A stretch of 63,603 nt of DNA, the filler included, from Globobulimina sp. (Eukaryota): NCBI GenBank assembly GCA_003354225.1. It is 47 parts of 47 records of this genome, joined end to end, with 100 filler letters (N's around TTAATTAATTAA, not from the genome) between each part and the next. Parts side by side here need not be neighbours in the genome. Positions count along the whole stretch, not along the records: positions 29,833 to 31,087 come from PIVH01020006.1; 46 more parts are not named here. One strand, written 5' to 3'. Both the position numbers and the translations under genes were made by a program. This document shows, piece by piece, positions 7,232 through 63,442 of this stretch; positions within the stretch are counted from its first letter, which is position 1; each line of letters starts with the position of its first letter. The notes below the pieces were generated by a model. The model saw only the letters and a list, made by a program, of their open reading frames with translations, did no database searches and had not been told where the DNA came from.

Positions 7232-7852
7232 ATGGAACTCCCAGAACAAGATTTCAGTGATATGAATAACGTGGATTTAAAGATATTTACCAAATTATTA
7301 CGCGTTGTGTGTCAATCGTTGCTAGCAACGGCGTGTGGAGTACCAGACGAACATTTGAATGATTTACAAAGTGAATTTTCAACGTATGATTTAAAGAAAA
7401 TGAGTGGACAGCTATTTAGTTTTATATCTGAAGTATGTCGCAGCGATGCAACAAAGCAAACCATGTCGACGACATTGGACGATTATCAGTTGGATGAGCC
7501 CCGACGGGATAAGATAGCCTCCGCCATATCTCATTATAAACTAAAAATACGCGATAAATTGGCACAAACAAGTGTGCCTATATCGCAATTGAGTGGTATT
7601 GAATGGAGGCTATGTCAAGATATTAAACAAAAGCAAATGTCAAGGATTAATAAACCATCATATCTCATTAAATTTAAATTTAATGTATGTCTATGTGTTG
7701 TATATACAGTCAATATAGTTATATATATATATATTTGTTATATTATATAGGATGGAGAGAAAGTATTTGAATGCGGATATGAACAGTTACAAGATTTGCT
7801 TGCTAGATTGAAGGTTGCCAGGAATTCAGCGCTTAGACTGTTAACACAATGA
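7232..7852 (+). CDS. COMMD3: COMM domain protein 3, exons 7232-7684 and 7751-7852
   Basis: LSGIEWRLCQDIKQKQMSRINKPSYLI; splicing the 66-nt GT..AG intron adds VFECGYEQLQDLLARLK, matching the COMMD3-type C-terminus. Confidence 0.8.
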
Positions 7853-8498
7853 TTTTGTAATTAATTTTGTAATTATTTACTCAAATGGCAATGTGCAAGG
7901 ATATAAAAATTGAAAACAGCTTAAATAAATCTTGGTTAATCCGAGACAAAAAAATAAGAAAACACAGCAACATGTTTCTGTAATTACAGCATATACAAAG
8001 GATACAAAACAAGAATATTATCGGTGAACGGATATTNNNNNNNNNNNNNNNNNNNNNNNNNNNNNNNNNNNNNNNNNNNNTTAATTAATTAANNNNNNNN
8101 NNNNNNNNNNNNNNNNNNNNNNNNNNNNNNNNNNNNTTTCCTTCAAAACACTAAGAAATCAATTTTCCTCTGTCCGTTAACCTTTAATAAGACTGACTTT
8201 TGTCATATGAGAGGACACAGACTGGTGTTGTAAAGAGCGACACGTTAACACGTTGATTCTTAAAGTTTAGAAGAAAAAAAAAAAAAAGAAAAAAAAAGTT
8301 TCTTTCATTACTGGGCAATACTAGTACGTAGTGATAATATTGATCAAAACTAAAAATTTCAAACCTAAAAATACAGACAGTCAAACACACCACAGACAAA
8401 CAGGCAGTCAAACAAGATTTTGAGAGAAATTAAAAAATAATATAAGATATAAAACGATGACGAGGCTGGATCGAAAATAATTATAATGTATAATATTT

Positions 8499-9392
8499 TT
8501 AATACTTTATCTCTTGATAATATTGCTGCAGCCATGTCCCTAATACCTTATACTGCGATTTCTGTAACACCCCGTTGCGTTCCAACTTATTCTCCAACAT
8601 CCAATTCACCGCCGGCACCAACTTTTTCTTCAATTTCTTTTTATCGATCTGTACCACTGCTCTCTCCTCGGTCTTTTCTTTGTATTTCAAAAACAAAACA
8701 CAGGCAAACAACAAAACATGTATACACTGCGATGCTTTGATCACGTCATCGTGCCCAAGCATCTGCTTCCTTTTATTACTTCGTTTCAAATGTTGCATCA
8801 ATCTCTGCGAAGTTTTCTCATTCACTTTGTCAATAATAAACCCTCCAAATTCGAACTCATTCACATCATACGGATCATAAGCATCATTTACCTCCTTTTC
8901 ATCCTGTAATTCCATCATTTTTTGTAACCGCACCTCATTCTCTACGACTTCAGGCGAAGAAACCACAATTTTTACGTCTCCGATTTGCCGGTTTGGACTC
9001 GTTGCATATCTCTGAATGGTCGGTTTATTGACTTTAGTACTTTTCAATACCACAGCACCATTTTTATTGACTGGATAATCAGACTCCGTTTGCGATTCAT
9101 AATCGTCAAAATCTGTCTCAATGTCATCATTCGCGTATTGCTCTGATAAATTGGCAATGCGTAATAACGAAGTTCGGAAACTGCCTTTCAATGTACTTTC
9201 AATCCATTGTTTAAGGGTTTTGCCTTCGCCATATTCTGCAAAATATTGCACAATGTCTCCCAAATCCTTCTCCGCGCGACCCACTAAAATACGAATTAAA
9301 ATGTGTTCCGAAGTGGTTATTCCTTTCATGGATTCCCGTAGTTTGCCAGCAAAAAAATCAAAGCGATTATTGGCGATTTTAATAATATTTTC
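8499..9392 (-). CDS. Annexin (last repeat) with a long C-terminal extension, 5' partial
   Basis: LRESMKGITTSEHILIRILVGRAEKDL..YGEGKTLKQWIESTLKGSFRTSLL fits the annexin repeat consensus. Confidence 0.8.
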   Translation of the reverse strand, partial: ENIIKIANNRFDFFAGKLRESMKGITTSEHILIRILVGRAEKDLGDIVQYFAEYGEGKTLKQWIESTLKGSFRTSLLRIANLSEQYANDDIETDFDDYESQTESDYPVNKNGAVVLKSTKVNKPTIQRYATSPNRQIGDVKIVVSSPEVVENEVRLQKMMELQDEKEVNDAYDPYDVNEFEFGGFIIDKVNEKTSQRLMQHLKRSNKRKQMLGHDDVIKASQCIHVLLFACVLFLKYKEKTEERAVVQIDKKKLKKKLVPAVNWMLENKLERNGVLQKSQYKVLGTWLQQYYQEIKY

Positions 9393-9591
9393 NNNNNNNN
9401 NNNNNNNNNNNNNNNNNNNNNNNNNNNNNNNNNNNNTTAATTAATTAANNNNNNNNNNNNNNNNNNNNNNNNNNNNNNNNNNNNNNNNNNNNTTGAGCAA
9501 AAAACGTGTGTTCGAGTTTCTGTTTTTTTGTTTGGCAGTGAATATTAAATGAATGACAGGTTTTTTTTTTTGAAGATGACAGCTAGAAAAA

Positions 9592-10449
9592 ATGCTCAAA
9601 CGTTTCTTTCTTAACTTGCCAAGTAATGTCAGAAGACACAGCTCATATAATATAGAATTAATAGCAGAAGAAAAGGTAATATTAGCTACTATTAATTCGA
9701 ATGTTGCTAATTATTTAAATTACCAATCACTACAAGATTGGAATAACTTATTGGATGAAATTGAAAATGTTTCAAACAAATCATTGTATAGCAAAAAACC
9801 TATCATCTTTACATCACCAAATGAGAGCAAATACTTTGGATCTGGCATGGATTTGAAATCAACCGCAACTGTCATAGATATGGAATCAAACAAGGAATTG
9901 TTTGGGAAATTTGAAGAAACTGTCAAAAGATTAATGACATTGCAACATAGAACAATAGCTAAGATACATGGATTTGCCATAGCGGGCGGATTTATATTTG
10001 GCCTGTCATGTGATGTAAGATGTGGTTTAGTATCGAATCAAATTTTAATGGGAATTAATGGAATCGAAGTTGGATTATGTTATCCATCAATAACGTATTT
10101 GTTACTTTTGCAGAGAATGCCGCATTTTACATCTAAATTATTAATAGCACAAACAAATAAATTGTTTGATACGGAGACAGCATTCAATTATGGATATTTG
10201 ACAGATTTTGCAAAAGATAAAGATGAACTCATGAAGTTGTGTGTTACTGAAGCATTGCGGATAGACGAAGACAGTATGAATGCTTATTTGTCTGTAAAAA
10301 ATTATTTATTTCAGAAACAAATCGAAATCAAATGGGAAAATGAAAGAGAAGAGGTGATGAGAGAATTTCTTAGGGTTAGAAAATCAAAACAAACACAAAG
10401 ACGGTTGCAACATATGGTTGATAAATTGAATAAAAAAAAGAATGTTTAG
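9592..10449 (+). CDS. Enoyl-CoA hydratase/isomerase (crotonase superfamily), probably mitochondrial
   Basis: YFGSGMDL and TIAKIHGFAIAGGFIFGLSCD oxyanion-hole motifs, GINGIEVGL; Arg-rich acid-free N-terminus. Confidence 0.9.
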   Translation: MLKRFFLNLPSNVRRHSSYNIELIAEEKVILATINSNVANYLNYQSLQDWNNLLDEIENVSNKSLYSKKPIIFTSPNESKYFGSGMDLKSTATVIDMESNKELFGKFEETVKRLMTLQHRTIAKIHGFAIAGGFIFGLSCDVRCGLVSNQILMGINGIEVGLCYPSITYLLLLQRMPHFTSKLLIAQTNKLFDTETAFNYGYLTDFAKDKDELMKLCVTEALRIDEDSMNAYLSVKNYLFQKQIEIKWENEREEVMREFLRVRKSKQTQRRLQHMVDKLNKKKNV

Positions 10450-10475
10450 ACTTAACAAATCATAAATTATTTTTT

Positions 10476-10748
10476 TTACGATGGTGCAGAGGTAAGTTCA
10501 ATAAATAAAATGCCAAAAGTGAACAAAGCAGACAAGAATGTGGCAATAACACCAAAATTCAATGTGAATATGCCGCCAACACTAATTCCATCAATAGAGT
10601 TCATTGAAGAAACTAATAATAATAACAAATTGATGCTTAGCTGTTGATTTGTATCATTATTATTATTATTATTATTATTGTTATTATTGTTATTAGTATT
10701 ATTGTTGGTAGCTGCTTTCAAAAAACTTCGATTGCTGCTACTTAATGG
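10476..10748 (-). CDS. C-terminus of a membrane protein, possibly gustatory-receptor-like (7TM ion channel)
   Basis: Poly-Asn loop followed by LSINLLLLLVSS..GISVGGIFTLNFGVIATFLSALFTFGILFIEL and a stop. Confidence 0.4.
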   Translation of the reverse strand, partial: PLSSSNRSFLKAATNNNTNNNNNNNNNNNNNDTNQQLSINLLLLLVSSMNSIDGISVGGIFTLNFGVIATFLSALFTFGILFIELTSAPS

Positions 10749-10848
10749 NNNNNNNNNNNNNNNNNNNNNNNNNNNNNNNNNNNNNNNNNNNNTTAATTAA
10801 TTAANNNNNNNNNNNNNNNNNNNNNNNNNNNNNNNNNNNNNNNNNNNN

Positions 10849-11746
10849 CTTTTTGCTGCGAATCTTGGCGCGAATCTGGACGTTTATAATCATTTTGATT
10901 GTTTGTGGATCGATCATAGCCACCTCTCGTATCCCTATTTTTATTGTCCCTTCGCGAGTCTCCATATTTATATTCACTTCGCGATTCTCGGTCATATCTA
11001 CGTTTTTTGTATGGTGGTGTATATGGTGCCTGATTTGGTGGAGTTTTATATGAATCTCGACCTCGATCCCGACTGTCCCTCAATCTCTTTCTTAATCTTT
11101 TATTATTTCTCGACAGCTTATTATTGTATTTTTGAGCTAATTTGGGACAATTTCTTTTAAGATGCGGTCCCCCACAGTTATAACATTTTATTTTCTTAAT
11201 ATATTTCTCCTGCTTATCCCTCACCACATTTCCACCAACTTCCTTCCCTCTATTTTCACCAACATCTTCCATCACAATATCAATATCACCATTTCCTACA
11301 TATAATATTTTACATTCACTCGGTAGATTTTCAATCTCATATAATTTGCTTTCATCGCAATTCATATGCATCTTCCATAAATGTGTAAACTCTGATGATT
11401 TCCAGCTCAAAATACCTTCATCATTAAAATCCCTCCATTTATTCACATAAAAAGCAATCGATACCTTCTGCCAAAAATTACTCGCGGTCATCAATCTGTC
11501 ATTTATCAAAGTGAATATTTGCGTTTTTGCAAAGATCCTCATTTCATTTATATTTCCAATAATGAGAGCATATAATTTGTTAAATTTTATATCCTTTGAT
11601 GAATATGTTAATAACGTATCTATGGCCCTTAATGTGATGGTTGACCATAACGTATGAAATGACATTTTACTGCTTAAAAATTTCTTTAATGCAGATTTTA
11701 TATTCGCACCATAACTTAGATGTATTTTCCAATGACTTGCCCACAT
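10849..11746 (-). mobile_element. Retrotransposon gag-like ORF with a CCHC zinc knuckle
   Basis: KCYNCGGPHLKRNCP (CX2CX3HX4C variant) after a helical region, followed by a basic R/D-rich tail; no introns. Confidence 0.55.
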
Positions 11747-16494: not shown

Positions 16495-16629
16495 TTACAC
16501 AGACACAACTTCTTCTACTCCAGGAACTTCAGCTTTTAAGAACTTCTCAATCCCCTCTTTGACCGTTACCTGAGACATTGGACATCCGTTACAAGCTCCT
16601 GTGAGTTGTACCTTTACTATACCTTCCAA
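16495..16629 (-). CDS. NifU C-terminal (Nfu-type Fe-S carrier) protein, 5' truncated
   Basis: [42 protein letters not shown] with the CxxC motif; convergent with rlmH. Confidence 0.9.
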
Positions 16630-16630
16630 C

Positions 16631-17383
16631 ATTGTATTAAAGGTAGCAAATTTTGGAACTAGTACTATTAACATAGGAGATACAATTCCAATTGGTATAG
16701 AAGTAAATGGAAGTCCGGCAGTAATGGAGTCATTTATTCTAACAGCAGTTTTAACAACTGGAAATTCTCAATTCTTTGTATCAGTAAATACCTTCGATTT
16801 CACAACTGTTGGTAGTTACGATATAGTAGCATATACTGAAATGTTCGATGATGTAGTTAATTTAAATGATACAATTTATGGAACAATATTCAATTATGGT
16901 ACTTTAGTATATGATTTAGGCCCTGATATTATTACAACCCAACCTGATACTGTAGTACTAGATGCCGGATCTGTTTATGTATCCTATTTATGGCAAGATG
17001 CAACCACCCTTCAAACATTTGATGTAGATACAGAAGCCTGGTACTATGTAACAGTTACGGATACAAATGGATGTGTTGGAAATGATTCGATATATGTAGG
17101 GAATAGTTTATCAACAAATCAATTGTTTGCAATGGAAAATTCTGTATCAATTTATCCAAATCCAAGTAACGGAATTTTCACAATAAATGCTATTAACGAA
17201 TTTGTTAATGATTGGATCATTGAATTAATTGATGTTCAAGGTCAGTTGGTCTATCAAATTAAAATTGATGATGTAAGATACTTCAGCAAAACAATTGATG
17301 TGTCTGCATTTGCCCAAGGGCTTTATTATATCAAAATAAATAATAACAAAGGATATATGGTTGATAAAATAATTATCAGATAA
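16631..17383 (+). CDS. Bacteroidota secreted protein with a T9SS type A C-terminal sorting domain, 5' partial
   Basis: [58 protein letters not shown] Ig-like repeat. Confidence 0.92.
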
Positions 17384-18984: not shown

Positions 18985-19621
18985 AGAAATATCCAAAATA
19001 TCATGGATTGGAACATTATACATTGCATTCACGGAAATAAAGCGAATAAGCGAGTACATAATAGACATAAACATGGATAACAATTTAATATATAAATCAC
19101 TGCAATTTGAATATCCAATGGAGACGGAAGCATTCCATCGGTCAACATATATCATTTGGACCCGAGAGAGAGGGAAAACGCACCAGTTTGGGACACAAAG
19201 TAACAAACTCCAATCGGCGATAATTTGCCAATGTAAAGGGAACTACAAAATATGTACAAAGTGCATACTCATAAAATTGACATTATTAAGAAAGGAAATA
19301 GCAAAGAAAAAAGGAACAACATTGAAGCAAACAGACTATATCTTTACAGCAACAAATAAGAAAGGAATAGAGATACCAATTAATAAATACATGGTAGGAG
19401 CAAAGATAAAAGAATTATGCGCAAAAACAGGATACGATCCAGAATATTATACACCACATGGAATGAGAAAAGGAGGGACACAGAAAGCAATAGAAAGAGG
19501 AGTTCCATTGCCGCAAATACAAAAGCAAGCGGACTGGAAAGGACCAGCAATGATATTTAGATATAATAACAATATAACAATAAAAAATCAAATCAAAGTA
19601 TTAAAAAAAGCATATGCATAG
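18985..19621 (+). mobile_element. Tyrosine recombinase of a DIRS/Ngaro/Crypton-type element, 5' partial
   Basis: AFTEIKRISEY (catalytic R), YTPHGMRKGG (HxxR), ADWKGPAMIFRY (W and catalytic Y). Confidence 0.85.
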
Positions 19622-28931: not shown

Positions 28932-29510
28932 ATGGCACTGAAAACTGCGGACGGAGAGGGATACGAAGAAAAAGAAGTAGCACCTAATGCAGCAGCAGAA
29001 GAAATGCAGCAGCCTCGCAATCGTTATGATATGGTAAGTCCGTATATATTTTTGCATTGATTAGTGACGAATCAAACATCAAACATGTATACACTGATAA
29101 AATAACATATATACAATAATACAACTATGTACAGGGGATTTGTGATCTGGTCGGTGGTGGACGCAGACAATGCAAGTGAGAAAATGGGTGACGCCCAGTC
29201 TTTTATTGTAGATTATTTTGGCTGGTTTTACATAGCATCATTGATAGTGTTTGGTTCCGCATCGCTATATTTTATGTGCTCTGTTTTTGGAGATATTAAG
29301 TTAGGGCCAGAAGACGAACCACCTAAATATCCCTTATTCACTTGGTTTAGCATGTTATTCAGTGCAGGTCTTGGGACTGGATTGTATTTCTTTGGTATTT
29401 ATGAACCAGTCTATCATTTGGATACTATGCAAAGCGGTTCTTCGCGATGGTACCATTTAACTACAAACCAGCAAGCCATGGAAGCATTAAATATCACTTG
29501 GTTCCATTGG
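28932..29510 (+). CDS. BCCT (betaine/choline/carnitine) transporter, intron-containing, 3' partial
   Basis: FGWFYI..FGDIKLG..TWFSMLFSAGLGTGLYFFGIYEP..TWFHW; GTAAGT donor at 29034, TACAG acceptor at 29134, GTATG donor at 29511. Confidence 0.9.
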
Positions 29511-29834
29511 GTATGCAATATGTATTAAAAAAAGTCAAAAAGAAAATCAAAGATATAGTCATTGGACATCATATGGAGGACATTGGAATGGATAAAAATA
29601 TATGTTTGTTGCGATATGGATATAAATATAAATGGAATCAAGTTTAGAATGCGCTGCAAATGATTTAGAGAGTGGTTCGTGTGCCAATTGGATACACGAC
29701 GCACATTTAGAAGGAGTATCAATGAACAAATANNNNNNNNNNNNNNNNNNNNNNNNNNNNNNNNNNNNNNNNNNNNTTAATTAATTAANNNNNNNNNNNN
29801 NNNNNNNNNNNNNNNNNNNNNNNNNNNNNNNNCT

Positions 29835-29912
29835 AGCAATTCTGTGGGAAATGGTCAATCACATAACAACATGCCACCATATTGTGTGCTTTCTTACATA
29901 ATGAAATTGTAA
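29835..29912 (+). CDS. C-terminus of a phage tail-collar / tail-fibre-like protein
   Basis: SNSVGNGQSHNNMPPYCVLSYIMKL* matches the G-x-G-x-x-HNN-x-x-PY-x-x-L-x-YI-x-K terminus of tail-collar proteins; not in the ORF track. Confidence 0.8.
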   Translation, partial: SNSVGNGQSHNNMPPYCVLSYIMKL

Positions 29913-30044
29913 AATATTGTACTTATATGCTTTTCAGTTTATGTACAGCAAATATTTCACCCAAAGGAGAATTTTGTGTCACAAAAGAGATGACTGTACA
30001 AAAACTAAACTGCAGCACTAAAATCTCTAGGTAACTAACTTTGC

Positions 30045-31055
30045 ATGGCACTTGCTTCGGATACAAATCCACCAAACTCTCACAACAGACTGACCTCACA
30101 ACTACTACGAGCGATTGATAATTGCATGGACGAATTGCAAAAGCAATTGAATAAAAACCCAAACTCCCGTATTCATAATAATCATTTTAAAATTGAGCGG
30201 GAAGAAAAGACGTTTGACAATAACAATTATCATAGGAAGAATAATAAAAGATCGCGGAATAAGAACCCATCCGTTTATATGAGCAAACGTCTATCTTTTT
30301 ATTTACGTCATGGTGCCGAGAAAGCCGGTCTTAAGATTCGCAATGATGGCTATGTAAAAATCTCAGATATTTTGAATTTGAATGAATTCAAACAAAACAA
30401 GGCAACCTTTGATGTGATTAAAAACATCGTTGATACCAACGACAAGAAACGATTTTCGATGATCGAGGAAAATAAGAGATGGCTTATTCGAGCAAATCAA
30501 GGACATTCCATAAAATCTATCAAATCAAAAGAATTATTAAATGAGATTACAATGAATGACATTGATAGATTTCCCGTTGTCTGTCATGGCACATATTTGA
30601 AAGTGTGGGATATCGTAAAAATGCAAGGACTAAAAACCATGTCGAGAAATCATATCCATTTTGTTCCTTCTGATTCGGTGAATGGCCGAGGTGTAATATC
30701 TGGGATGCGGTATAACTGTCAAATATTAATTTATATAGATTTAAAATATGCGTTGCGTGATGGTATAAAGTTCTTTCTCTCTTCAAATAATGTTATTCTA
30801 TCTTCTGGCGCCAATGGACAATTATCGCCAAAATATTTCACAAAGTTATATGTGTCTAACTCTCTCTATGTAATAATATAGATAATTATATATAATATAT
30901 ACAGGGTAACGACTTTTGAAAAAGGAAAACCAGGCAAAATAATATGGATTAATGAGAGCTCAAACTTAAATTCAGACAATGAAAAAAGTAACAATAATAA
31001 TAATAATTATAAATTTAACAATAATGTTGTTCGAGATAGCTGGCATTCAGATTAA
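30045..31055 (+). CDS. TPT1: tRNA 2'-phosphotransferase (Tpt1/KptA), intron 30845-30904
   Basis: SKRLSFYLRHGA, NDKKRF, IRANQGHS, HGTY, MSRNHIHF; the 60-nt intron restores the frame to TAA at 31053-31055. Confidence 0.93.
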
Positions 31056-31279
31056 AATAATAAATATTACTCATCCTTGCACTTTATNNNNNNNNNNNNN
31101 NNNNNNNNNNNNNNNNNNNNNNNNNNNNNNNTTAATTAATTAANNNNNNNNNNNNNNNNNNNNNNNNNNNNNNNNNNNNNNNNNNNNAGATTGCCATTCA
31201 TTTTTAAAAAACATTTATAAATCACATGGTAATTTATACAGAAACAGTAACAACAATTTAAAAAACAATAATAATTTAG

Positions 31280-35152: not shown

Positions 35153-36200
35153 NNNNNNNNNNNNNNNNNNNNNNNNNNNNNNNNNNNNNNNNNNNNTTAA
35201 TTAATTAANNNNNNNNNNNNNNNNNNNNNNNNNNNNNNNNNNNNNNNNNNNNTGGTCATCTAGCTCAAGAAGAGCAATTGGCTTATACCATATATGCAGG
35301 TTCAATTCCTGCGGTGACTGGCGGTGGTGGAGACACGAAAGGTGCGTTTTTATTATTTTAAATATGTTGGTCGCGGTGGATATTAATATGACTATATACA
35401 TACAATAAGGTATTTGGGGAAACAAACTGATTGGAACCATGCAATCTGTGATTGGAATCAAGAAATAAAAATATACAGTCTCGAACATACGGAAAGCGCA
35501 CAACTTTTACAGGTGCTGCGATATGGAAACTGTAGAAGGATTAACTGGATTAATTGTGTGCTGTTTCATAAAAAATGCCTTTGTGAATGCTGGGTCCTTC
35601 TTCGATTGGGATTTGAATTTCTTTAACCAATAACCGGCGATCCGATCGACTTCTTTTTGTGCTAAATCTAAATTTCGAGACTGGTAAAGTATTGGATGAC
35701 ACCTTTCGAGACTTGGAAAGTGAAACTCCTTTAGCTGGGAGTGCCATGATTTTCGTAAAGGAAAAAATGCTGGAAAAACAACAAAACCCTACCAAGTCAC
35801 TACAAGAGAAAATGATCATGACTTCTAGAACGTTTTAAGCTGTTTCAGAAAGCACTGATCGCACACAAATAGTCCAAATACCAATATGTCATTACACTGC
35901 AATTTTTAATATGATAGCGTAAATATTGCGGAAGCAGAAATCAGATAGAAATCAGATCGTTGTGTAGAATATTTTATCCAGAAATATTAGGATTGATTAT
36001 CTGTGAGCTTATTGTGACTATTATTCATTTACAAATGGCAGCAATGTTTGATACCGAAATTATATTACTCGCAAAAAAAAATGGTAGTACTGATAAAGAA
36101 GAGATACAAAAAAAAGAAGATATAGTACATTTGCTGTAAATACAAGTAATGAAATTACATCTGCAGAGCATATATAATTTATTCGACTTACTAGTATCTA

Positions 36201-50506: not shown

Positions 50507-51349
50507 TTACATTTTTTTAAACAAAAAATAATTTTCTGGCTGTCGTGTTTCAAATAAATCATGCCACTGTTTATCAGTCCAATTTTCCACTCCCAAACTT
50601 GCGTGTATGCTATGTTTCACTCCCATTTGAAAATACCATTCATACCATTTAGTCTCACTTTGTTGGAGATCGTCATTAAAAATAGCTCTGTACCCGTACC
50701 TTCCATAGAAATCACAATCACGTTCAAAATGTCCTTGTTGACCACAATTATAGCATGTTGATGGTCGACTACCTCTACCTCGTCCTCCTCCATAATTATC
50801 ATTTTTTGGTGCATGTTCGAATTCATTTTGGTGAATCTTTATTTTATTTGCATTCATTAATTTTCCATTCATTTCTCGTACTCTCATTTGTTGATAGCCA
50901 GAAAAATATGAACGTAAAGATATTCTATTTGTAGCAAAATCAAATTCCCATTTTGAATATGGTGTAAGTCTCTGTGGAGGATGATTTATCCGGTCATCAA
51001 TTTCAAACATTTCATGACCACAAGCTATCATTGCACAACCACCATTTCTAAGTATCCACAATAGATATTCATCATCAAAATTCCAGTAAGCGCCATAACT
51101 GATTGGATATGAATATTCGGAAATATTTTTAATTATTAAATCGATTCTTAATTCATTTGGCAATACATTTGTCAAAATTGCAGTCCATTGATAACGTAAT
51201 TTTTCTTCATGTGTTGGTATCTGATTGTTTGGATTATCAAGAAAGCAAGCTTGGCACTCTTTTGAACTCTTTTTATTTTGTAAATCACAAGAGGAGCATG
51301 TCCAAAATTTTCTAGTACCTGTACTGAGGTTACCTGTAGTTGTTGACAT
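50507..51349 (-). CDS. RanBP2-type zinc finger + RGG/CCHC zinc knuckle protein
   Basis: FWTCSSCDLQNKKSSKECQAC and GGGRGRGSRPSTCYNCGQQGHFERDC. Confidence 0.8.
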   Translation of the reverse strand: MSTTTGNLSTGTRKFWTCSSCDLQNKKSSKECQACFLDNPNNQIPTHEEKLRYQWTAILTNVLPNELRIDLIIKNISEYSYPISYGAYWNFDDEYLLWILRNGGCAMIACGHEMFEIDDRINHPPQRLTPYSKWEFDFATNRISLRSYFSGYQQMRVREMNGKLMNANKIKIHQNEFEHAPKNDNYGGGRGRGSRPSTCYNCGQQGHFERDCDFYGRYGYRAIFNDDLQQSETKWYEWYFQMGVKHSIHASLGVENWTDKQWHDLFETRQPENYFLFKKM

Positions 51350-51512
51350 CAGACGCAAGATAAAAAAAATTAATTTAAAGTAAGTAAACTTTACATCTCT
51401 GCATCATGGGAANNNNNNNNNNNNNNNNNNNNNNNNNNNNNNNNNNNNNNNNNNNNTTAATTAATTAANNNNNNNNNNNNNNNNNNNNNNNNNNNNNNNN
51501 NNNNNNNNNNNN

Positions 51513-56932: not shown

Positions 56933-58187
56933 CAAACTACTTAGTTTTCTGAGAGCGATTTGATGGTGTCGTTTCTGTCGCTGCAGCTCTTTGATGTTCG
57001 GTGTATTTTGCATCCAAGGTTGCGGTGGCCTTTTGAAGGTCTTAGAGCGAGCAGGGGCCAATTCATCTATTGTTTGTCTAATATAGGATTGTAAGGTATC
57101 AGCTCTAGTCGTCACATCTGCTCCTCTGTCGTAATTATCCAGCTTTGTAAACAAAGCGTCGATTATCGCGTCAGAGGTGAGACCAGATTTGTCCCTAACT
57201 TGGCATTGGAAAACTTTGTTTTTAGGCACTTTCAGCTTGAAAGCCGATAGCACCAGATTATGATCAGAGAGGTCACACAGCAGGGAATCTGATATAACAA
57301 GTTTGTCTGCCAGAGCACTGCTAACCATCACATGGTCAATCAAAGTTTTAGACAGATTGTTATTCATATAGGCTAAACGGGTGGGCTTGTCGATCAGCTG
57401 TTTCAGGCCGTAATCCGTGCAAACACGCAAAAGCTGTCTAGCTGGAGCACTGCCTGACAATAGATCAACATTCGAATCACCCAATATGATATGATTTGGC
57501 GATAAAGAAATTGTCTCAGCTAGTGTGCCAAAGTTATCTGGGAACTCTGCCGCACTACAACAGCTATGAAAATTTCTATAGAAAGCGGTGACATTTACAG
57601 TACAACCAACAGTTCGCACCGTAGCACACAGCTTCTCAAAGTTCGCCATTTGGGTAGCATTTTCTAAGTCCGTGTTTTGGACCGGGTTTAAGCCCTCCTT
57701 TATGTACAAAACAAGACCCGAACCTTGTCCTACACCATCTTTTCTAAACAATACATACCCGTTTATTTCCAATATATTTTGGTCATCTTTATCGGTTAGC
57801 CAAGTTTCACTTACGGCAAGGATGTCAATTCCGGTGGTTCTTAAGAGTCGATCGACTTGTTCAACTTTATTTCTGAGGCTCCGGATGTTAATATGAGCAA
57901 CTGTGAGTAATCCGTTTCGGTCAATTTTACATTTTCGGATTAATTTTGGTAATTCCCAGCAAGTAGAGATGTTTTGTAGCTCTGGTGCTATTATTTCCAT
58001 AGGTAGATTTGTTGATGAGAGACAGGAAAAGCAAAAAATTGGAAGAATTGGGGGCAATAATTGAGTAGGAATGTGCCGAAGTTTAGCACAGACAGGGTGA
58101 AACCAGAGCTTACATTCATGACATTTAAATGCTCGATCATTTAGCAATGGAACGAGACATTCTGAGCAATTAGATCTTCTTTTATCT
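56933..58187 (-). mobile_element. LINE (CR1/L2-like) ORF: PHD finger + apurinic endonuclease
   Basis: CHECKLWFHPVC..FCFSC; HINIRSL, ILAVSETWL, ILGDSNVD, PTR..LIDH, SDHNLV. Confidence 0.92.
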
Positions 58188-62581: not shown

Positions 62582-63442
62582 TTATTGATCGCCAGCATAA
62601 ATAAATAAATTTCCAACATGTAGGGTAGGTTGATACACTTCAACACGTGAACCATTACCAAAAGACACAGTTGATACAGTACCATAGGGATGGGATGGTG
62701 CGTATGGATTATAGGCAGTTGGTGCTACACATTTTGTAGGCACTGATGACCAGCCATCGTAATTACACCCCGTAAGCCAAATTTGATGTGAATGTGGAGG
62801 GATATTTGCAATACTTAATGTTATATTTTCTTTCCCAATTTTATCACCAATTGTGTATTTATCACCATTTATTCCAATAACACGATCTCTTCCATTCGGC
62901 AAAGCAAATCTTGTAAGTAAATGATAAGAATCTGCTGCTGTATCAACATATTCATTTTCTGATGTTTTATTTCCGAATACATAGCCAATAATGTTAAATA
63001 ATTCTGTATAATCCCTTGGGTCAAGAAACGAACCATCACATAATAGCCAATTGCTATGACTGTCATTGTGTGCCGATATTTTATAATCACCAATATACGT
63101 TTTGTAAATATCTGATGATGGAATTGCTGTTGGAATTGCTGTTGGAATTGTTGTTGGAATTGCTGTTGGAATTGCTGTTGGAATCGATGATGGAATTGTG
63201 TCTGAATTGGAGCAGACACAATTATTTGTTCGAAAAAATGTCACATATGTTACCAATACAGTACAATAAATCAGTACCAATGAAAGCAATATCATCCAAA
63301 CTATTTGATAAAAGGGTGTATGTTGCCCATGACCAGTTGCATCACTTATCATTGGAATATATCGTTGAGTTCGAGTTGCCTTTGTTTTAGTTGTATTCAT
63401 TTCAATCTGAGGCAACAACTCATCTGAGCACTTTTCATCCAA
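62582..63442 (-). CDS. Single-pass membrane protein with a Pro/Thr stalk and a phage tail-collar domain
   Basis: TM IVWMILLSLVLIYCTVLVTYVTFF; (PTAI)n; IGDYK..WLLCDG..YTELFNIIGYVFG..FALPNGRDRV..GKENITLSIANIPPHSH..QPTL. Start codon uncertain (TTG 63442 or ATG 63400). Confidence 0.85.
   Translation of the reverse strand: MDEKCSDELLPQIEMNTTKTKATRTQRYIPMISDATGHGQHTPFYQIVWMILLSLVLIYCTVLVTYVTFFRTNNCVCSNSDTIPSSIPTAIPTAIPTTIPTAIPTAIPSSDIYKTYIGDYKISAHNDSHSNWLLCDGSFLDPRDYTELFNIIGYVFGNKTSENEYVDTAADSYHLLTRFALPNGRDRVIGINGDKYTIGDKIGKENITLSIANIPPHSHQIWLTGCNYDGWSSVPTKCVAPTAYNPYAPSHPYGTVSTVSFGNGSRVEVYQPTLHVGNLFIYAGDQ
63119..63196. repeat. 12-bp coding tandem repeat (TTGGAATTGCTG), about 5-6 units
   Basis: Encodes IPSS-IPTA-IPTA-IPTT-IPTA-IPTA-IPSS on the minus strand. 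Confidence 0.9.

Follow-up and report, generated by a model that had tools for sequence, protein, structure and literature searches.

Collar-domain proteins are the parts with which phages, virophages and giant viruses contact the surface of their targets. In the proteins gp12 and gp37 of phage T4, the HxH motif is known for its metal-binding role. As far as the parts of the two sources drawn upon here go (PMC3671162; PMC12724248), collar proteins are already in print for virophages and for a protein family of the Organic Lake phycodnavirus (OLPV), where, on the one side, the virophage proteins OLV18/19 are given as "closely related to a family of OLPV proteins" (PMC3671162) and, on the other, 45 virophages are given in which three tail genes with a collar domain follow one another beside the minor capsid gene (PMC12724248), a role in adsorption and receptor binding being proposed for such tail proteins in both. 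Regarding a collar family encoded by a eukaryote, no literature report was found save a table entry for Plasmodiophora brassicae, in the portion of the source considered (PMC9530463). The DNA analysed here, hereafter the window, is a stretch of 63,603 letters from Globobulimina sp. (GenBank assembly GCA_003354225.1), composed of 47 short contigs (1254-1256 bases each) and N spacers and thus no continuous genome stretch. One of these contigs (PIVH01020006.1, positions 29833-31087 of the window) opens with two bases of a codon followed by 25 codons in frame, i.e., SNSVGNGQSHNNMPPYCVLSYIMKL (29835-29909), reading as the C-terminal end of a tail-collar protein, and continues with a spliced Tpt1 gene of eukaryotic type. 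It appears somewhat probable that this fragment is a eukaryote-resident member of a multi-copy viral-type collar family, namely a host gene in use, truncated by the contig end. It would add a new member to an established family, at a location not usual for it; so far the evidence is slender (25 codons, a 1.25-kb contig and a low-depth assembly) and makes a pointer to a locus worth extending rather than a result.

The collar-type gene is represented on the contig by two features, namely:

29833..29909, plus strand: 3' end of the coding sequence of the collar-type gene, made of two codon bases and the 25 codons of SNSVGNGQSHNNMPPYCVLSYIMKL, truncated by the 5' end of the contig
29910..29912, plus strand: TAA stop codon of the collar gene, nine residues past PPY, at the position of the stop in the YIMKL-ending relatives

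The 25 residues exhibit the C-terminal signature G-x-x-Q-x-H-N-N-M-[PQ]-P-[YF] together with its hydrophobic strand, as in the phage tail collar superfamily, which in Pfam combines Collar (PF07484) with a Gp10_C-like C-terminal part (PF21939). Relatives were gathered with a degenerate Q-x-HNNMPPY pattern on metagenome contigs (at least 125 loci), relatives from IMG/VR were added, and 211 distinct 25-residue collar C-termini from both sets were built into a tail profile. Among 2320 six-frame segments of the window, this profile gave the fragment 54.9 bits (E 5e-16) and the runner-up segment E 0.049, a score that is partly circular because the search pattern derived from the fragment, i.e., about half of the training tails had been retrieved with it, which concerns the seven residues HNNMPPY and not their flanks. 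Checks without this circularity are provided, on the one hand, by PHROGs, where the 25 residues match phrog_8763 "tail protein" (E 9.1e-5) and, more weakly, the C-termini of phrog_8469 (279-300 of 303) and phrog_1800 "tail collar fiber protein" (523-545 of 545), and, on the other hand, by the stop codon, which stands where the relatives stop. The giant-virus-type family profile (A3) aligns the fragment with its last 24 positions (230-253 of 253) at E 8e-13. No Pfam family is matched by the 25 residues; the Collar model describes the N-terminal portion of the domain (..G-x-I-x-x-W-x-G..P-x-GW-x-x-CDG..), which would be encoded 5' of the contig start. As judged from its sequence, the fragment is the true 3' end of a gene of the tail-collar/tail-fibre-tip superfamily, the level of a chance match being far exceeded.

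The fragment stops nine residues past PPY with YIMKL and fits a class in which PP[YF] is followed by nine or ten residues and the stop, the end reading ..[YF]I[MI][KR]x-stop. When the class profiles were compared, the YIMK-end class (186 tails) scored 59.6 bits on the fragment, three other HNNM classes 36.6-38.6 bits and the lineage of a second collar copy in the window (type 2, below) 16.0 bits, and the fragment is assigned to the class ending ..HNNMPPYxVLxYIMKL-stop. The initial annotation, which had seen a tail-collar-type C-terminus at the opening of the contig, is borne out by the tail profile (E 5e-16), the A3 profile (E 8e-13), PHROGs and the class score. Its description of HNNM-x-PY..YI-x-K as the typical end of tail-collar proteins holds for one class only: among the 131 Q-x-HNNMPPY matches listed, just 15 end like the fragment, the others being distributed over several classes, namely ..W[KR]R.. 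(68), MdpB-like ALQGxFPxR (20), ..IEYVGF (13) and otherwise (15).

Downstream, the collar TAA is separated by 132 bases from the Tpt1 ATG (30045), the two genes being oriented tail to head. Public sequencing runs were searched with the contig 29833-31087, and the contigs of four of them (X1, X5, X6 and X8) were aligned to it. X1 is probably the sample behind the window assembly (depth about 4); the type of X5 is not recorded and "RNA" for X6 and X8 is a guess; cover has gaps on 29833-29958 in X5 and on about 29959-30000 in X6 and X8, from which nothing is drawn. The further features of the contig are:

29834..29879, plus strand: conserved 46-base block of several family members, encoding ..SNSVGNGQSHNNMPP
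29913..29955, plus strand: probable 3' untranslated region of the collar gene, a flank covered by X8 record 25
29998..30029, plus strand: 32-base element overlapping the start region of the Tpt1 contigs of other runs (X1 record 2; loose ends 29998 and 30029 in X1 and X5)
30045..30844, plus strand: exon 1 of Tpt1 (RNA 2'-phosphotransferase), from the ATG, with the PF01885 match
30845..30904, plus strand: spliceosomal-type intron of 60 bases, GT..AG, with the joint 30844>30905 in X5, X6 and X8 contigs
30905..31055, plus strand: exon 2 of Tpt1 including the TAA stop, from the frame 30882..31055 and the observed joint

The neighbour is a conserved, spliced eukaryotic Tpt1 gene. Its frame matches PF01885 (Tpt1/KptA) at E 9e-63 (residues 76-255 on profile positions 3-177 of 177), its best solved relatives in the PDB are 7yw3 (E 2.2e-38) and 7yw2 (E 9e-38), both "tRNA 2'-phosphotransferase 1", and animal Tpt1 families are the nearest clusters in the Atlas (score 0.93). 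The splice 30844>30905 is present in one contig each of X5, X6 and X8, and X1 record 5 reads through the intron; the spliced frame passes from ..KYFTK to VTTFEKGKPG.. at the joint and gives a product of 316 codons. When exon 1 of the window is compared with X5, X6 and X8, third codon positions account for 28 of 35 differences (hand count, among the differences listed) and the sole indel is 3 bases long; over about 830 bases, the Tpt1 contig of X8 deviates by 41 letters. With the intron skipped in three runs, differences mostly at third positions and an indel of 3 bases, Tpt1 is therefore a conserved and spliced eukaryotic gene, as the initial annotation had placed it 132 bp downstream of the collar end with an intron. 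In IMG/VR, no close viral relative of Tpt1 was found, the one weak match having 31% identity over 74 residues.

Sequence spanning the collar-Tpt1 junction, on which the initial annotation had made its reading depend, is found in X1 record 1 (712 letters, from a different assembler), which is unbroken over 29833-30526 and extends 20 letters beyond the contig start; because X1 is probably the source sample of the window, this bridge is a second assembly, probably of the same reads, and not second data. In X8, which belongs to another study, the same collar gene end and 3' flank occur, record 25 (109 letters) covering 29850-29955 and deviating by 4 letters and 3 gaps. The nuclear location that had been proposed for both collar genes of the window stands for the fragment as far as it is linked to Tpt1 in one low-depth sample and re-bridged by X1, whereas for the second copy it is unsupported because its contig holds no other gene. 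The starts of X5, X6 and X8 contigs (30010-30019, beside adapter letters) and the end of X8 record 25 (29955) are only weak hints at transcript ends, and 29955 as a transcript limit is a hint at most, as contigs cannot reveal RNA ends. As for the 32-base element, which occurs once within the window, X1 and X5 contigs contain it at a second locus, directly 5' of the ATG of another gene, and it may be a shared core-promoter or leader element; the other copy has 2 mismatches and the two therefore have no exact 31-base word in common.

The beginning of the contig coincides with the 46-base block. From 29834/29836/29841 to 29870/29879 it is matched by X8 records 21-24, which deviate by 0-2 letters, and X6 shows depth on 29833-29874. 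On the 5' side of 29834/29836, the X6 and X8 contigs, i.e., from two other studies, continue with three different sequences, all of which are open in frame for 9-10 codons each (hand translation), a length that stops short of the region where an anchor and neck would be encoded. Given several members with a near-identical 46-base block, the contig therefore probably starts at 29833 by an assembly break. By comparison of these contigs, the collar gene is one of several family members sharing a nearly identical block, and the three upstream continuations uphold the earlier suggestion of an expanded family.

In the search for orthologues, an alignment of the fragment with the 45-residue tail of L042, the best metagenomic match (alignment A2), was compared with a collection of 5.8 billion proteins, and search words for full-length relatives were derived from the fragment and L042. 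The nearest full-length relative (P0300) has 20 of 25 residues in common with the fragment, the last 16 being identical. This protein of 264 residues starts with a membrane helix, which is followed by a charged spacer, by a helical neck with ..VYLADIDSIRTL.. and by the collar. It matches PF07484 at E 4.9e-6 (26.9 bits for a cut-off of 24) as well as positions 381-545 of 545 of phrog_1800 at E 9e-24. Another relative, P0299, which has no anchor, has 19 of 25 residues in common with the fragment. More generally, relatives of the YIMKL class are small type II proteins of 190-300 residues with an N-terminal anchor, a helical neck bearing Y-x-A-D-[IV]-x-[AS]-I-R-N-L and a collar. The PPYC variant of the fragment was met in 8 distinct fetched sequences, all 8 of which have the anchor and/or the neck motif (7 pass a crude membrane-helix test and 6 have the neck motif). 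In the alignments of both sets of relatives, the HxH motif (..P-S-H-x-H..) is invariant, i.e., H172/H174 in A3 and H202/H204 in A1, the type-2 alignment. As a side observation, the anchor and the ..YLADVEAIRNLS.. neck module are also found fused to H_lectin (PF09458) and VOMI (PF03762) domains (P0020, P0033, P0057, P0063 and P0065), and the anchor-neck module looks like that of a swappable-head family of membrane-anchored proteins.

Regarding structure, the A3 profile finds in the PDB the entry 9qgo, "tail fiber protein", at E 6e-25, whose chain ends in ..PPYYLLAFIMKL, and further 9nxk, 6ov6 and T4 gp12 (1pdi, 5iv5, 1ocy); the three best solved entries consist of 3 chains of one sequence apiece. 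The monomer model of P0300 is poor (predicted local distance difference test, pLDDT, 65.6; predicted template modelling score, pTM, 0.32) and no match at E <= 0.001 was obtained with it by Foldseek against the PDB; the weak rows, from this poor input model, are tail fibres, namely 9nxk (1.8e-3), 6ov6, 8on5, T4 gp12 and gp37.

Giant-virus contigs carry several of the relatives. Around locus L067, a family of 804 members is obtained at E <= 0.001, the longest contig reaching 313 kb; in IMG/VR, 196 candidate stretches include 184 that encode a relative, and GVMAG names are borne by 7 of the 76 loci retained. For four IMG/VR loci (L129, L149, L178 and L180), 47 of the 61 open reading frames (ORFs) of at least 150 residues were scanned with Pfam. 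On the 157-kb contig of L129, the collar gene adjoins a family B DNA polymerase gene. On the 404-kb contig of L149, a tandem array of at least 4 collar genes ending in ..YI[MI]K[LQ] (about 7800-11100) is flanked by TFIIB and UDG genes on one side and by an Rpb2 gene split by a LAGLIDADG intein on the other. Genes for an mRNA capping enzyme, KilA-N and DUF2738 were found at L178, and collagen, PARP/E2 and kinase genes at L180, while L042 has three tandem anchored collar genes. UniRef labels as "viral metagenome" the relatives on a 160.6-kb contig (cluster P0292/P0293; A0A6C0IUI7 and A0A6C0ISM0), and the relative P0345 is on GVMAG-M-3300023184-24. Tailed-phage fibres that bear tandem collar domains share the ..YIMKL-stop end, as do high-GC loci such as L053 and L003. 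On the downstream side, which is the one covered by the contig, the gene of the fragment has no viral core gene beside it, the only neighbour being the spliced eukaryotic-type Tpt1.

The window contains a second collar gene, of another type:

62582..63400, minus strand: second collar gene, complete, 272 residues, with PF07484 at E 2.8e-8 and a PT repeat at E 0.01, ending in QPTLHVGNLFIYAGDQ

From the N-terminus onwards, it consists of a short tail, a single membrane helix, a stalk rich in Pro and Thr, and the collar domain; its structure model is weak (pLDDT 45.4), the confident part being only the helix of residues 29-56. In the Atlas, its best score (0.85) is at lead level only, the clusters being those with Collar and mostly viral. 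A word-indexed search gave 15 relatives of like build (34-64% identity in the best local alignments), of which 5 are from EukProt (three of them, checked by accession, from the transcriptome set of the foraminifer Nonionella stella) and 10 from ENA assemblies. The type-2 family is marked by the C-terminal signature ..[IVM]-x-QPT-[ILV]-F-x-G-N-x-F-I-[YF]... With its profile (A1), 24,300 proteins out of 1.84 billion representatives are detected at E <= 0.001; 90 of its best 150 representatives have the QPT..FIY ending and none of these 150 the HNNMPPY..YIMKL ending, and the profile has no match to the fragment at E <= 1. Same-ending but stalk-less type-2 relatives are found on giant-virus contigs (13 loci, 4 of them named GVMAG), L204, L207, L208 and L213 being among the loci with such relatives. 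A quick tree of 70 rows was drawn with support from the Shimodaira-Hasegawa-like approximate likelihood ratio test (SH-aLRT) only, rows of more than 450 residues and duplicates being left out and the midpoint root serving for drawing only. In it, the QPT lineage (30 rows) splits from all HNNMPPY classes with a support of 99, the second copy of the window lies in a clade of 15 rows with the EukProt and ENA relatives and four library representatives (support 97), and two anchor-less phage-like rows stand beside the giant-virus class (support 90). The existence of more than one subtype, as suggested initially, is corroborated by this split and by the fact that A3 hits the fragment and A1 does not; on this tree and these profiles, the two subtypes of the window are two old lineages, each with giant-virus kin.

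With regard to the remainder of the window, 50 of its 105 ORFs of at least 90 residues were scanned with Pfam and 21 matched, 19 of them families common in eukaryotes, among which annexin, ANF receptor, COMMD, CAP-Gly, SAM, GNT-I, a tyrosine-kinase-like domain and an endonuclease of the long interspersed nuclear element (LINE) type. Bacterial-looking ORFs are present at 16574-17380 (plus strand; Por_Secre_tail, i.e., sorting by the type IX secretion system, T9SS; E 3.8e-15) and at 18986-19618 (plus strand; phage-integrase family; E 3.8e-8), and, going by these domain matches, the predominantly eukaryotic set includes some contigs of bacterial origin. The G+C content does not discriminate, being 0.36 in the collar fragment, 0.347 in Tpt1 exon 1 and 0.31-0.34 in the viral relatives. 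An Rfam scan of the window gave one match only, a tRNA at 35254-35320 (plus strand; 44.2 bits), and no rRNA. Apart from this, the preceding contig carries at 29106-29525 (plus strand) a fragment of a BCCT betaine/carnitine/choline transporter (PF02028, E 5e-33), a family best known from bacteria, and retroelements are represented in the contig set by a LINE-type endonuclease/reverse-transcriptase ORF at 56933-58186 (minus strand) and a zinc-knuckle ORF at 50510-51403 (minus strand).

Several explanations compete with that of a resident collar gene in use. That an open frame at a contig end should resemble a collar terminus by chance is suggested by the very short length of the fragment and its lack of a Pfam match, and yet is of negligible probability in view of E 5e-16 among 2320 window segments, of PHROGs matches with a best E of 9.1e-5 and weaker ones at profile C-termini, and of a stop codon exactly at the position of the family. 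It is highly improbable, too, that the junction is a chimera of assembly or amplification in which a viral or bacterial collar end was joined to the promoter region of the host Tpt1 within 29956-30009: eukaryotic and bacterial contigs are indeed mixed in the window (T9SS at 16574-17380, integrase at 18986-19618), depth is only about 4, and the 32-base element at 29998-30029 repeats elsewhere, such repeats permitting assembly crossover, but X1 record 1, a contig of a second assembler, is unbroken across the junction, the copies of the element are without a common exact 31-base word, and X8 record 25 confirms the collar end and its flank up to 29955, therefore leaving about 54 bases for a false join.

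As both subtypes have relatives on giant-virus contigs, viral origin or an integrated viral element is therefore the main question. The fragment could be the edge of an integrated giant-virus or virophage/polinton-like element abutting Tpt1, i.e., a passive viral gene with no host role, which is considered unlikely while deserving to be taken seriously. All close relatives found are viral or metagenomic and none is from an annotated eukaryote; collar genes form tandem arrays in the giant-virus contigs of L149 and L042 and, according to the parts of the two reports drawn upon, stand as three consecutive genes by the minor capsid gene in 45 virophages (PMC12724248), OLV18/19 being close kin of the OLPV protein family (PMC3671162); the short gene spacing would moreover be typical of viral genomes. 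A co-inherited locus is on the contrary suited by X8, where the gene end differs little (4 letters and 3 gaps in 106 bases) alongside a Tpt1 with 41 differences over about 830 bases, and several diverged members in two other studies suggest a maintained family over a single insertion, although an old and fixed insertion would be compatible with both the X8 pattern and the diverged members. Another possible donor of a eukaryote-resident collar gene, in place of a giant virus, is a bacterium or tailed phage that passed on an MdpB-like or tail-fibre gene without an intermediary, a derivation that seems distinctly unlikely. The ..YIMKL-stop end of tandem-collar tail fibres and of the high-GC L053 and L003, the 19 of 25 residues matched by the anchor-less P0299, and a tail fibre as best solved relative speak for it; the absence of the MdpB-type extension, the score of the MdpB-class model (38.6 against 59.6 bits) and the PPYCVL variant, all 8 known carriers of which among the fetched sequences have an anchor or a neck, speak against it. 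With anchor-less phage-like rows beside the giant-virus class (support 90), 25 residues therefore cannot separate the two sources.

Some observations weigh against the explanation preferred here, namely that of a eukaryote-resident, multi-copy collar gene in use. Only 25 codons are on the contig, beyond whose end lie both the anchor and neck and, within the collar, the HxH motif and the part that Pfam models. Among 5.8 billion proteins, no full-length orthologue was found, the best of 82 candidates sharing query words agreeing at 20 of 25 residues. Giant-virus-type relatives score only narrowly above phage-type ones (20/25 for P0300 and 19/25 for P0299). The bridge from the collar end to Tpt1 comes solely from X1, probably the window's own sample at a depth of about 4, and the X6 and X8 contigs over the block could derive from any family member or from a virus in those cultures. 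The attribution to a eukaryote, finally, is drawn from the intron, the relatives of Tpt1 and 19 of 21 Pfam-matched ORFs.

Under the preferred explanation of a resident collar gene in use, the gene would have been acquired from a giant virus or one of its virophages, and would at present belong either to the host's own genes or to an integrated element still transcribed. By homology with solved tail fibres, three chains would assemble into a parallel homotrimer, where the upstream HxH, expected beyond the contig end, would hold a metal ion on the threefold axis, the final strand ..PPYCVLSYIMKL would close the collar domain and the trimer tip might bind surface carbohydrate. Because the relatives carry a membrane anchor and a helical neck, from which the collar domain hangs, the protein would be displayed on a membrane. 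A broader proposal, i.e., that the eukaryote acquired two giant-virus collar lineages, multiplied them and kept them in use as membrane-anchored surface trimers, is rather doubtful. If true, such trimers could be sugar-binding receptors for prey or symbionts, or decoys blocking the attachment of the source viruses, and a constant 46-base block with divergent upstream sequence would correspond to a family varying its binding face while keeping the trimer-closing strand. Collar genes beside a spliced host gene, with family members in the contigs of other studies, would constitute a concrete case of giant virus-host exchange of attachment proteins, and would give a handle on what attachment proteins bind.

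Compared with known systems, the closest likeness of the fragment is with the anchored collar proteins of giant viruses (P0300, P0292/P0293, P0345 and the OLPV family), which have the same ..G-x-x-Q-x-HNNMPPY-x-V-L-x-YIMKL-stop and with which the rare PPYC is shared, the last 16 residues of P0300 being identical; those collar genes, though, are intron-free and stand in tandem arrays among viral core genes, whereas the fragment is 132 bases away from a spliced Tpt1. The tips of phage fibres (9qgo; 9nxk, from Pseudomonas phage Pa223; T4 gp12 with 1ocy, 1pdi and 5iv5; gp37 with 2xgf; PHROGs 8469, 8763 and 1800) are homologous with the whole collar/tip domain of the relatives and share the terminal strand of the fragment, the solved entries being homotrimers. 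These phage proteins are long, baseplate-attached fibres, unlike the relatives of the fragment, which are membrane-anchored proteins of 190-300 residues; to our knowledge, neither eukaryotes nor giant viruses have a tail. The bacterial MdpB ("microcystin-dependent protein", which is also the JGI name of many relatives) and C24 of Bizionia argentinensis (PDB 6ov6) have a collar domain and HNNM[QP]PY as in the fragment, but the MdpB class has an extra ..ALQGxFPxR ([AS]-[LI]-x-G-x-[FY]-P-x-R-x) after the strand (20 of the 131 matches listed), before which the fragment stops, scoring 21 bits lower in that class. The collar-domain "tail" proteins of virophages (OLV18/19 and the tripartite tail proteins of DSLV2), likened by domain and not by sequence, have the same Pfam domain and connect giant viruses with virophages; in the parts of the reports drawn upon, they are encoded by three consecutive genes beside capsid genes, in contrast to the Tpt1 neighbour of the fragment (PMC3671162; PMC12724248). 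Among the secreted proteins of a eukaryote, the candidate effector Pb4_109755 of P. brassicae ("Phage Tail Collar Domain") is a precedent, likened by annotation alone from a table entry in the part of the source considered (PMC9530463). Within the window itself, the second copy belongs to the same superfamily (PF07484) as the relatives of the fragment and represents a deep and separate lineage, with its QPT-x-F-x-GNLFIY end and its Pro/Thr-rich stalk.

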